Source: an uncultured Mycoplasmatota bacterium (GTDB taxonomy: Bacteria > Bacillota_I > Bacilli_A > RF39 > UBA660). Taken from it: a stretch of 64,000 nucleotides of DNA. Positions 52,013 to 54,198 of the stretch are shown here, piece after piece. The position numbers and the translations under genes were made by a program. Position 1 is the stretch's first letter, and every line of letters begins with the position of its first letter. The DNA is taken from assembly GCA_947365915.1 (NCBI GenBank), contig CANAXT010000002.1, forward strand, positions 2,031 through 66,030, given 5' to 3'. The notes beneath the pieces were generated by a model. That model was not told the origin of the DNA. It saw only the letters and a program-made list of their open reading frames with translations, and did no database searches.

Positions 52013-52387
52013 AAAAGGAGTTAGTTATATATGAATACTAGATTTTGTCCATTTGTATCAAACAAAGAAGAACAATCAGATTGCAAACACAATTGCTATT
52101 TTTATGACTTTGAAAAGTATTGTTGCAAATTAGAAAGTAAAAAAAAATAACAGTAAGCGATGGTTGTAAAATTGCATTTGGCTTTATATTATTAAACCTT
52201 ATGATTATCATTATTGGTTTGGTTGTTATATCACTATTCAATCTTATAAAAAATATAGAAACCGAAGAAGATAACTGCGATCACTATACAATAACTAGTG
52301 AAGGATTCAAAATCTGCAATTAAAAAAATCATTCTATTTTCTTAGAACGATTTTGACATTACAAATATTTTATGTTATTATGTATTT

Positions 52388-52503
52388 GTTGAGAGAAATC
52401 TCATATAATAAAAAAAGAGATACACTTGATATTAGCGTGTTAAGTGCTTCTCTATTTAAAAAATTGGGAAACACCGTTTCAATGCTGATTCGGTGCTTTT
52501 TTT
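52388..52503 (+). ncRNA. candidate small RNA (copy A), convergent with and antisense-adjacent to the peptide gene
   Basis: Promoter TTGACA (52353-52358), 17 nt spacer, TATTAT (52376-52381). Terminator CACCG-N14-CGGTG followed by T8 at 52472-52503. Confidence 0.35.
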
Positions 52504-52513
52504 GTGTTAGTCT

Positions 52514-52609
52514 CTATTTTTTAAGACCAAGATTGTATATAATACAATAATTGCAAACGCAACTACTAATTCCACTTGAATTAATCCTTTCTATATTTTT
52601 TTCAAACAT
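52514..52609 (-). CDS. 31 aa Cys-containing peptide (copy A): MFEKNIERINSSGISSCVCNYCIIYNLGLKK
   Basis: Minus strand. RBS AGAGGTGA. A TTGACA-N17-TATAAT promoter lies about 80 nt upstream, and the 5' UTR contains the hairpin CTCTATTaTTTCATCAtTTGATGAtAGAATAGAG. Confidence 0.4.
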   Translation of the reverse strand: MFEKNIERINSSGISSCVCNYCIIYNLGLKK

Positions 52610-53742
52610 AGAAATCACCTCTATTCTATCATCAAATGATGAAATAATAGAGTAAGCACCTAACTATCTTGCGTATCTCAATATGAATTATATATTGATT
52701 TTTATTAATTGTCAATCACAAATTTTCTTGTGTCATTTTTGTTTTACAAAAACAGTTTCATTTCAAAACTGTTTAAATTGCTTCTCTACTTTTTCTCCGA
52801 CTGCTCGAAAAAGTTTTTCATTCGTAATTACTTTATAATTATTCATACTTTTTATTCCAATTTTCCTTTTTAATCAGGAACCCAATAACATGTTTTATAA
52901 TGCGGGAGCGGTATGCTATCATAAGCGGGTCATTTTGTGAAAAAATTTACCTATCTATAAACGTCGTTCGCAAGCTCTCTCCTATTGCCATAAACCGCGC
53001 TAGCATTCCTTCACGAATTTTTATATCGAAAAACGTGTAACCAACAAACAGACTACTAATTTACCGTCTAGGCTTTTTCTGCGCCGGGAGGGACCTTTGG
53101 CGACTCGGGTAGGCGGTCCTCCCTTACAGCGCATCATTATTTTATATTCTAACCTATTGCATGATCGTTTTTCGATTGCCTGGACAAAATTCGTGCTAGG
53201 CACAAATAGGGATTTTATTCCATGGTATATTGACTGCGTAGACATTTTTTGTTATCGGAGCTTACGTCCTCAAAAGGACAGAAAGGAGGTTCCTATGATT
53301 AAATTTATTTATCTAAACAACGAAGAATTCAATCCATCAATTCAAAATTGCTATACAATTTACGAAAGACTAAACATAACAATAATTCCAAAAATAACTA
53401 AAGTTGGATTGAAACTCATTAGATTAGGAGTTGAGGACTAACTCTCCTCTCTTCCTTTTTTAACATATCATATTTTAACAAAAAAGTCTACTTCCTCAGT
53501 CAATATCTTTCACGGCATAAAAAAATAGAGAGTGCCTAACCGGAACACTAGCGCGGTTTATGACAATCTCGGACATTTTTTCACAAACAAATAAGGGTCG
53601 CATTTCGCTAAAACAAGCGTAACATGTCATTGCCTAATTAAAAAGTTTTCTCGGCATAAAAAGAACAAATAATTCTAATTTCATCTACTCATTTCAACGC
53701 AATTTAAACAAAAATAACACAATTTATTATAGAAAGATAAAC

Positions 53743-53770
53743 AGTTTCGTATTTATACATTATAGAAAGT
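53743..53770. other. hybrid half-dif junction (attR)
   Basis: AGTTTCGTATT-TATACA-TTATAGAAAGT. The central region and the XerC-side arm are identical to the left site; the XerD-side arm has diverged. Confidence 0.55.
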
Positions 53771-53836
53771 TGAATAAATTACTTATTTTCTTAAAACAAT
53801 TTTGACATTACAAATATTTTATGTTATTATGTATAT

Positions 53837-53947
53837 ATTGAGAGCAATTCTCATATAATAAAAAAGAGATACACTTGATATAGCGTGTTAAGTGCTTCTC
53901 TATTTAAAGGGAATACACCGTTTCAATGCTGATTCGGTGCTTTTTTT
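53837..53947 (+). ncRNA. candidate small RNA (copy B)
   Basis: TTGACA (53802-53807), 17 nt spacer, TATTAT (53825-53830). Terminator at 53916-53947. Confidence 0.35.
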
Positions 53948-53957
53948 GTGTCAGTCT

Positions 53958-54053
53958 CTATTTTTTAAGACTAAGATTGTATAAAATACAATAATTGCAA
54001 ACGCAACTACTAATTCCACTTGAATTAATCCTTTCTATATTTTTTTCAAACAT
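53958..54053 (-). CDS. 31 aa Cys-containing peptide (copy B): MFEKNIERINSSGISSCVCNYCILYNLSLKK
   Basis: Same RBS and promoter architecture as copy A, with two conservative substitutions. Confidence 0.4.
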   Translation of the reverse strand: MFEKNIERINSSGISSCVCNYCILYNLSLKK

Positions 54054-54198
54054 AGAAATCACCTCTATTCTATCATCAAGCGATGAAACAATAGAGTAAG
54101 CACCTAACTATCTCATGTATCTCAATATGAATTATATATTGATTTTCATTAATTGTCAATCACAACTTTTTTACTAAAAAAACTACAATATGTAGTTT

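Follow-up and report, generated by a model that had tools for sequence, protein, structure and literature searches.

The hok/mok/sok locus of plasmid R1 encodes a toxin, Hok, of ~50 amino acids (aa), together with an RNA, Sok, that is encoded opposite the 5' leader and blocks translation of mok. The Ibs toxins of Escherichia coli are hydrophobic peptides of only 18 to 19 aa, and the Sib RNA is fully antisense to the ibs open reading frame (ORF); the hosts of this system are Gram-negative. The type I toxins of Clostridioides difficile are larger, at ~34 to 53 aa. Here we describe a duplicated ~390-bp module in a 64,000-nt stretch of contig CANAXT010000002.1 from an uncultured Mycoplasmatota bacterium (the window, whose numbering we use throughout), which we consider likely to be a type I toxin-antitoxin (TA) locus of a previously undescribed family with a par-like layout. 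The closest layout is indeed that of par of pAD1 from Enterococcus faecalis (toxin Fst; RNA I and RNA II; PMC7472228), with which the module has in common convergent promoters, a bidirectional terminator whose complementary stem-loops serve as the RNA contact, a 5' stem-loop over the Shine-Dalgarno (SD) sequence, a small hydrophobic peptide with a charged C-terminal tail, and presence on both mobile elements and chromosomes. The TxpA/RatA, BsrG/SR4 and BsrH systems of Bacillus subtilis prophages and the skin element likewise resemble it in their 3'-overlapping convergent small RNA (sRNA), prophage location and short hydrophobic toxin. Type I TA systems of C. difficile prophages occur as near-identical paralogues and have been shown to help maintain the mobile element (PMC7699646), and the module shares with them carriage by a prophage of a gut Firmicute and the presence of near-identical paralogues.

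Copy 1 of the module spans 52335-52728 and copy 2 spans 53784-54172, with 93-95% identity overall; identity is 95% in a shared 261-nt block and 92% in one of 65 nt, and blastn aligns 409 nt at 92.7%, in keeping with the near-identical duplication described in the original prediction for this locus. Two exact occurrences of a 23-nt word of the module are present in the window, where chance would give 0.00. Each copy contains convergent promoters, a shared bidirectional terminator, a plus-strand sRNA of ~116 nt and a minus-strand mRNA of ~215 nt, with the ends of both RNAs predicted. The toxin mRNA promoter is a perfect TTGACA-17-TATAAT (12/12) on the minus strand of both copies (52687..52715 in copy 1 and 54131..54159 in copy 2), and it is conserved in the family. 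The sRNA promoter scores 11/12 on the plus strand, reading TTGACA-17-TGnTATTAT with an extended -10 in copy 1 (52353..52381) and TTGACA-17-TATTAT with an extended-10 TG in copy 2 (53802..53830). The consensus minus-strand and near-consensus plus-strand promoters proposed earlier are thus present in both copies. Across the family the sRNA promoter keeps its -35 TTGACA and a -10 TAnnAT at fixed spacing, as TTGACA-17-(TGn)TAnnAT.

The peptide encoded by the minus-strand mRNA differs from the one first proposed. The earlier candidate was a 31-aa ORF (MFEKNIERINSSGISSCVCNYCIIYNLGLKK; frame A) at 52514..52609 on the minus strand, with its ATG at 52609-52607 and a strong SD, AGAGGTGA; both ORF and SD exist, but the frame is broken in several relatives and its product is not conserved, so that it is not supported as the functional product. 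Overlapping it on the same strand, shifted by +1, is a 22-codon ORF (frame B) that had been overlooked. In copy 1 this predicted toxin (MELVVAFAIIVLYTILVLKNRD) starts with GTG and occupies 52507..52575 on the minus strand; in copy 2 the same frame (MELVVAFAIIVFYTILVLKNRD) lies at 53951..54019 on the minus strand. The SD of the copy 1 ORF, GAAAGGA (52585..52591, minus strand), is placed 9 nt before the GTG, corresponds to the invariant tAGAAAGGAttaattc of the family and takes part in an mRNA helix described below (helix 2). The corresponding region of copy 2 (54029..54066, minus strand), with the toxin SD at 54029-54035 and an upstream SD/ATG at 54051-54066, is a block identical to copy 1 at an offset of +1444. 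The predicted toxin has one acidic residue followed by 17 aliphatic or aromatic residues and a K-N-R/K-D tail, and the consensus peptide is without Pro, Gly or Trp. As expected of a type I TA toxin, then, the product is a small hydrophobic peptide, conserved in ~50 modules at 21-22 aa, of which 17 make up an aliphatic core ahead of a K/R-x-x-D tail. These modules derive from metagenome-assembled genomes (MAGs) of uncultured gut Bacilli, from metagenomes and from two phage types. Within the ORF region the two window copies differ by 2 nt, which produce 2 aa changes in frame A and, in frame B, one change and one silent substitution. The conservative changes that had been taken as a sign that the 31-aa peptide is translated are therefore no evidence for frame A, because the overlapping frame B changes less.

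Comparison with relatives points the same way. A sister species, represented by 10 contigs with a backbone ~84% identical, was reached via a close variant of the neighboring helix-turn-helix (HTH) protein; its loci were found by synteny rather than by a sequence pattern and are free of any bias toward frame B. At the same chromosomal position it carries a diverged copy that keeps frame B (QLELVVIYTTIVLYTILILRNND followed by a stop, with a TTG start after AAGGA), and frame A is closed. A degenerate pattern built on the frame B peptide, searched in 185,579 species genomes, returned 28 loci. Of these, 25 are true members, and every one comes from a MAG carrying the label uncultured Bacilli, Tenericutes or Firmicutes (host taxonomy here rests on the MAG labels only). 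All 25 loci share an invariant tAGAAAGGAttaattc and the same stop position, and their start codons, whether ATG, TTG or GTG, occupy a single fixed site. A frame-neutral search with an invariant noncoding motif of the 5' untranslated region (UTR), GAGGTGRTTTCTATG-N12-RTAGAARGG, added 10 further loci from metagenomes and IMG/VR plus 2 extra copies in loci already found, and all of them encode a 21-22-aa hydrophobic frame B peptide with a K/R...D tail, including the divergent ELLVAFVTVILLIIIVLKKN, QLLCVFAFMVYLITLVLKKD and DLIVVFSIIVLYTILILKKKD. The divergent members L040, L049, L032:3331 and L023:2254 (L numbers denote the collected loci) still yield hydrophobic peptides of 21-22 aa.

Frame A is maintained far less faithfully. 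In L044/L048 and L024 a spacer longer by 1 nt ends frame A after 14 codons and leaves the toxin ORF intact; frame A is also broken in the L002-type sister-species loci, L022:3538, L025 and L039 (after 4 codons in L039), and in L049 its product is unrelated in sequence, including the C-terminal part. Codon-position entropy in frame B is highest at third positions (B3 0.76 > B1 0.35 > B2 0.24), and synonymous versus nonsynonymous codon differences number 1496/1830 in frame B versus 417/2968 in frame A. Given that relatives keep frame B and that its third positions vary most, the conserved predicted product of the module is the 22-aa hydrophobic peptide and not the 31-aa one. A search of related genomes, proposed at the outset as a check on the 31-aa peptide, thus finds it truncated, broken or unrelated in several relatives where the nucleotide sequence is conserved, a pattern that had been named in advance as pointing to a purely RNA or regulatory element. 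The module is nevertheless not purely RNA, because another ORF, frame B, is conserved.

The predicted toxin mRNA covers 52465..52681 in copy 1 (minus strand, ends predicted; fold z = -4.8 vs shuffles; nhmmer E = 5e-58) and 53907..54128 in copy 2 (minus strand; nhmmer E = 1e-58). It folds into 7 helices that are 95.6% paired across the family, compared to 40-55% with slid partners, and shows compensatory double changes at 20 pairs versus 4-8 in controls, which 0/500 shuffles match (RNAalifold and pair counts). Helix 1 is a 5' stem-loop, CUCUAUU...AAUAGAG (52619..52652, minus strand), that occludes half of the upstream SD; 5/8 of its pairs have compensatory changes, in agreement with the 5' UTR hairpin seen originally, and it provides a stem-loop over the SD as in par. 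The upstream SD, AGAGGTGA (52615-52622), and its ATG (together 52607..52622, minus strand) form a predicted leader ORF start, and the arrangement GAGGTG[AG]T-TTCT-ATG is kept in 22/23 aligned modules. Between this ATG and the toxin start lie 11 codons that are open in most relatives, with residues 2-5 varying freely and covarying with helix 2. In helix 2 (52588-52614), UUUCUAUG-NN of the upstream start region pairs with NN-AUAGAAA of the toxin SD, with 97.6% pairing and compensatory changes. In helix 3 the small loop holds the toxin start codon, and four more helices occupy the coding region and the 3' UTR. Helices 1-3 together cover both SDs and both start codons, the sequestered ribosome site that characterizes type I toxin mRNAs. 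RNAalifold additionally pairs the 5' GGUGUUUU with the 3' AAAACACC; these segments are nearly invariant, show little covariation and compete with the terminator hairpin. We infer that the upstream SD and ATG are a real initiation site, because the GGUGAU part is unexplained by pairing, and a leader ORF probably begins at the upstream ATG, its translation making the toxin ORF accessible, by analogy with known leader-coupled toxins.

On the opposite strand, the predicted sRNA of copy 1 (52388..52503, plus strand) comprises a 5' hairpin, a central hairpin and the terminator, with its ends placed from the promoter and the T-run; its fold z is -5.1 vs shuffles and its nhmmer E is 9e-28. The copy 2 sRNA lies at 53837..53947 (plus strand; terminator 53910-53947; nhmmer E = 6e-26). 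The predicted ~116 nt agrees with the ~115-nt transcript ending at an intrinsic terminator that had been proposed. Its three helices are 91.6% paired in 24 relatives vs 35-55% when slid, and 0/500 shuffles reach the covariation score. The shared bidirectional intrinsic terminator of copy 1 (52466..52503) has the family consensus GAAAACACCG-loop-CGGTGTTTTC and compensatory changes (mRNA helix 7, sRNA helix 4). Downstream of its stem, CACCG (52472-52476) with CGGTG (52491-52495), the plus strand has a run of 7 T and the minus strand reads only TTTCCC, the poor U-run in that direction that was noted from the start. The hairpin was missed by a simple terminator scan because its loop is long; since the stem is symmetric across the family, the terminator should be able to act both ways. 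As both RNAs end in it, they are predicted to be perfectly complementary over ~40 nt at their 3' ends. The module thus combines a conserved convergent promoter, a covarying sRNA and a ~40-nt overlap calculated from predicted ends, the configuration of a cis antisense RNA in type I TA, and the convergent, 3'-overlapping mRNA and sRNA of the original prediction are supported by the promoters, the shared terminator and the co-occurrence of the sRNA with the toxin ORF. The overlap regions of copy 1 and copy 2 have an identical 33-nt core, so each sRNA would be expected to cross-neutralize both toxin mRNAs.

In the same sense, the sRNA resembles the 5' end of the toxin mRNA (GAGAUACAYUUGAUA...UUAGGUG). 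The sRNA linker CATATAAT (52401-52420; alignment A3 columns 33-54) is kept as TAnnnT, resembling a -10 element, and is followed by GAGATAC, as is the toxin promoter. Together these similarities suggest that the sRNA gene originated by inverted duplication of the toxin leader, and perhaps there is a second, internal sRNA promoter at this linker. The L049 sRNA is without the 5' hairpin, and in L034 a new TTGACA promoter is fused inside the sRNA; these two cases indicate that a shorter form of the sRNA may suffice.

The distribution of the module in relatives follows the logic of a toxin and its antitoxin. In a profile search of all loci collected, the convergent sRNA is present in 37/38 intact toxin cassettes, the one exception being truncated by the end of its contig. 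Copies with the antitoxin only, in which the toxin is deleted or truncated, occur at L021 24-194, L047 957-1127, L023 1620-1715 and L039 288-389. The sole toxin ORF without an sRNA is the sister-species relic (L002 8906-9160; L003-L012), which adjoins an identical dif site; its 22-codon ORF and SD are intact, and the promoter, 5' UTR, right arm of the terminator and sRNA are gone. This asymmetry, whereby sRNA-only copies exist and the toxin-only relic has no expression signals, matches what is predicted for a TA locus. Modules form tandem arrays ~400-425 nt apart (three in L037, 1709-2870; two in L022, 3499-4136), several module loci per genome are seen, and phage carriage extends to an inovirus-like prophage in the window and a tailed-phage-like viral contig (L049), features of distribution that are typical hallmarks of type I TA. 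The module of L049 (780-1110) is complete but divergent, and the contig encodes an HNH endonuclease and an endolysin. Rfam, at gathering and permissive thresholds, gave no family for the module, with weak matches to rli28, SSRC10 and GibS that are treated as chance or as a lead only, and no tRNA was found. Annotated phages and plasmids yielded no match to the module by blastn or to the peptide by tblastn, and the exact 23-mer was absent from viral contigs.

We propose that the minus-strand promoter would drive the structured ~215-nt mRNA encoding the 22-residue peptide, which is predicted to insert in the membrane and to be toxic, while the plus-strand promoter would drive the ~116-nt sRNA that ends at the shared terminator and pairs with the mRNA 3' end. 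By analogy with par RNA I/II, TxpA/RatA and BsrG/SR4, this 3'-end pairing may inactivate or destabilize the toxin mRNA, with the sRNA as putative antitoxin. A second layer of control would act in cis, the 5' stem-loop covering the upstream SD, helix 2 the toxin SD and the loop of the third hairpin the toxin start. Ribosomes starting at the upstream AUG could then melt these hairpins and allow the toxin ORF to be translated, as mok does for hok, with the leader peptide itself being unimportant. Like hok/mok, the module has a toxin ORF overlapped by an upstream ORF, here a putative leader whose translation would open the toxin's ribosome site, as well as a dense mRNA fold with a predicted 5'-3' closing helix.

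Despite these likenesses, the module differs from each described system. Unlike par, it is without the DRa/DRb repeats and hence has no second 5' complementarity over the toxin initiation region; its sRNA, with three hairpins, measures ~116 nt against ~40-65 nt in par, and the toxin SD is locked by an additional upstream SD/AUG and hairpin. At 22 aa the peptide is shorter than Fst (33 aa) and contains no PXXXG and no Trp; it has no Pfam Fst match, and hhalign gives a probability of 1.4% against Fst. Membership in the Fst family is ruled out by the missing DRa/DRb and by the missing PXXXG/Trp signature or similarity. In contrast to the TxpA/RatA group, in which the RNAs overlap by 75-120 nt, the overlap here is ~40 nt (the terminator only), and the peptide is shorter and unrelated in the available searches; Rfam RatA (RF01776) has no match in the module. 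The double-SD region of both copies (52549-52625 and 53974-54131, minus strand) scores 21-22 bits against Rfam rli28 (RF01492), whose gathering threshold is 45, a resemblance not reproduced in L037. In Listeria plasmids, rli28 overlaps a BsrH-like toxin ORF convergent with RatA (PMC9484302). Unlike Sok, the sRNA of the module is convergent at the 3' end; the peptide is unrelated to Hok, with no HOK_GEF Pfam match, and leader coupling is proposed from the fold. The module toxin is very small and hydrophobic like Ibs, and its loci are also tandemly repeated, but there is no sequence relation. Finally, the toxins and RNAs are other than those of C. difficile, and the carrier is a filamentous phage integrated at dif.

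Several observations weigh against interpreting the module as a type I TA locus. The main set of homologues was retrieved with the frame B pattern and carries an ascertainment bias, from which the synteny and UTR-motif sets are free. The coding region is also constrained by mRNA hairpins, as illustrated by changes from A-F-A to I-F-I that are compensatory in helix 4, so that part of the apparent peptide conservation is RNA-level. A hydrophobic stretch of 17 residues is short for a membrane span, and the peptide matches no known toxin family, with no Pfam or NCBIfam hit at E<=1-10 and no PDB hit. The protein collection searched contains no exact entry for the small ORFs, and a literature search with the peptide motif found no paper. 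A second sRNA-mRNA complementarity, sought through duplex energies and recurrent segments, gave nothing significant (z ~0 vs shuffles). Only short AU-rich complementary matches recur, of 8-9 nt in 15/21 modules, along with an anti-SD-like CUCUAUU in 7/21, and the silencing of translation by 3'-end pairing is accordingly a prediction drawn from other systems. A small membrane peptide under cis-antisense control that is not part of a TA locus, such as a superinfection-exclusion moron, a holin/antiholin-like protein or a regulator of a membrane protein, would suit the modules' presence in two phage types, and many small hydrophobic proteins are not toxic. We nonetheless regard this as unlikely, as multilayer translational locking, obligatory pairing with the sRNA, antitoxin-only remnants and tandem arrays are hallmarks of TA.

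We attach very little weight to the possibility that both transcripts are structured RNAs without any coding function, such as a regulatory element associated with a phage or with dif, and that the ORFs are incidental. Covariation is very strong even inside the coding region and no protein family matches, but the start switches only among ATG, TTG and GTG at one position, the SD stays 9-10 nt away, the stop is invariant, substitutions remain hydrophobic even in the divergent L040 and L049, and third positions are the most variable. It is similarly improbable, to the point of being nearly dismissed, that the Cys-containing MFEKNIERINSSGISSCVCNYCIIYNLGLKK is the functional product, whether as a type I toxin or as a secreted pheromone or precursor of a ribosomally synthesized and post-translationally modified peptide (RiPP). 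The 31-aa peptide does have the stronger SD and a canonical ATG, kept in 22/23 modules, and its frame is open in most relatives; against this, residues 2-5 are free to vary with the RNA hairpin, the C/Y and Y/H changes are nonconservative, and the breaks in the frame and its excess of nonsynonymous differences are those set out above. The pheromone or RiPP alternative raised originally fares no better, as the precursor is not conserved and no modification, export, sensor or receptor genes lie nearby; the neighbors are small phage ORFs, HTH proteins and mnmA. Least credible of all, and in effect refuted, is the idea that the 390-bp repeat is a mere duplication from phage integration at its attachment (att) sites, without a function of its own. 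Copy 2 does begin where attR ends, and within the prophage copy 1 is close to the att-proximal end, but the true att is a 38-nt dif-containing repeat rather than the module, which is found in ~35 other genomic places away from dif and inovirus genes.

The setting of the two copies bears on what the module may do. The chromosomal dif (44025-44052), which together with the attL repeat (44036-44072) occupies 44025..44072 on the minus strand, matches 24/28 positions of the B. subtilis dif (PMC3025954); this is the unique best match in the window, and it is 28/28 to the single site in empty-site relatives. From 44073 to 53753 extends a 9.7-kb inovirus-like prophage whose right end consists of copy 1 and a 1-kb hairpin-forming region. 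It is followed by attR (53743..53791, minus strand), made up of a hybrid dif (53743-53770) and the repeat (53754-53791), and attR stops 11 nt short of the -35 element that belongs to the sRNA promoter of copy 2. The 38-nt direct repeat (44036-44072 and 53754-53791) includes dif and is single copy in the sister species, which lacks 43405-54175 save for short pieces; the prophage is absent from loci L002-L012. Its genes encode a rolling-circle Rep of the G2P type (PF23343 / phrog_3419) and a Zot-type assembly ATPase (PF05707), along with a 593-aa protein, an HTH regulator and small hydrophobic products. No integrase family was matched among the prophage ORFs scanned, and a gene for a Xer-type recombinase is located in the chromosome at 39995-40900 (by synteny). 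We interpret the element from this gene content as an inovirus-like prophage integrated at dif by the Xer route (an integrative mobile element exploiting Xer, IMEX, like CTX-phi). Gene orientation converges on the dif site, as expected at a replication terminus. Copy 1 thus lies between attL and attR and copy 2 outside attR, so that one copy is indeed phage borne and the other chromosomal, as first noted. Copy 1 probably stabilizes the filamentous prophage or acts as a moron; TA modules of type II are known on filamentous phages (PMC13048266).

Beyond dif, the att identity runs on for 21 nt on the host side, and a separate, diverged version of this host flank accompanies copy 1. These features suggest recombinational exchange between the phage and host copies. 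The near-identical copies in a dif-integrating prophage and beside the host dif represent a natural test of addiction vs anti-addiction. Leader-coupled translation and exchange with a dif-integrating phage are possibly novel features. We suggest only tentatively, and with some doubt, that the family works by a two-tier lock, new to Gram-positive type I systems, in which a leader ORF of arbitrary sequence has to be translated to melt the hairpin over the toxin SD and the sRNA contacts just the terminator, and that the module is traded between a Xer-exploiting phage and a dif-adjacent locus, with the host copy serving anti-addiction or the phage copy securing the prophage. The module would add a type I TA family without an Rfam, Pfam, NCBIfam or PDB match from uncultured gut Bacilli, a group with virtually no annotated type I systems, since gene callers overlook sRNAs and ORFs of 22 codons. 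Its predicted toxin is among the smallest proposed, and its mRNA offers a compact model of nested translational control, in which two SDs and a putative leader ORF are combined with three covarying hairpins within ~100 nt. A practical lesson is that the most obvious ORF, with a strong SD and an ATG, was not the conserved product.

Copy 2 is flanked by a gene for a 260-aa HTH protein (54199-54981) that is 98% identical in the sister species and has a 62% relative in the IMG/VR contig L001 (1-774), directly beside a rolling-circle Rep. Because this relative adjoins a phage Rep, copy 2 and the HTH gene may be a remnant of an older dif-integrated element. A relic dif was not found to the right of the HTH gene (best 18/28, the background level), L001 itself, found via the HTH neighbor, holds no module, and no relative of the Rep was found in viral contigs. 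Dif adjacency as a general trait of the family was considered and rejected, as modules elsewhere are not beside dif and the association is particular to this lineage; tblastn detected no inovirus genes beside other modules.

When folded as single-stranded DNA, the 1-kb spacer between the modules (52750-53749) forms a single long, imperfect hairpin (z = -7.5) with arms at ~52755-53009 and 53542-53758 and contains a GC-rich hairpin at 53080-53135. It also contains a 48-aa ORF (53296-53441) with the ribosome-binding site (RBS) GAAAGGAGG. This spacer is probably the phage intergenic region, serving as origin, packaging signal or attP. To the left of copy 1 are two small phage ORFs (52031-52150 and 52201-52323), one Cys-rich with 39 aa (MNTRFCPFVSNKEEQSDCKHNCYFYDFEKYCCKLESKKK) and a good RBS, the other of 40 aa with a hydrophobic N-terminus and recorded in the protein collection. 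Further left, between divergent phage genes, the segment 51661-51758 comprises a 76-nt palindrome (51661-51732) and 23-nt direct repeats (51667-51689 and 51736-51758), and its location upstream of the HTH regulator (51776-52012) looks like that of an operator region. Elsewhere the window contains dispersed repeats of 100-200 nt with 72-79% identity that are unrelated to the module (7956-8150 and 11273-11466; 5248-5396 and 29893-30041; 10779-10919 and 19903-20055).

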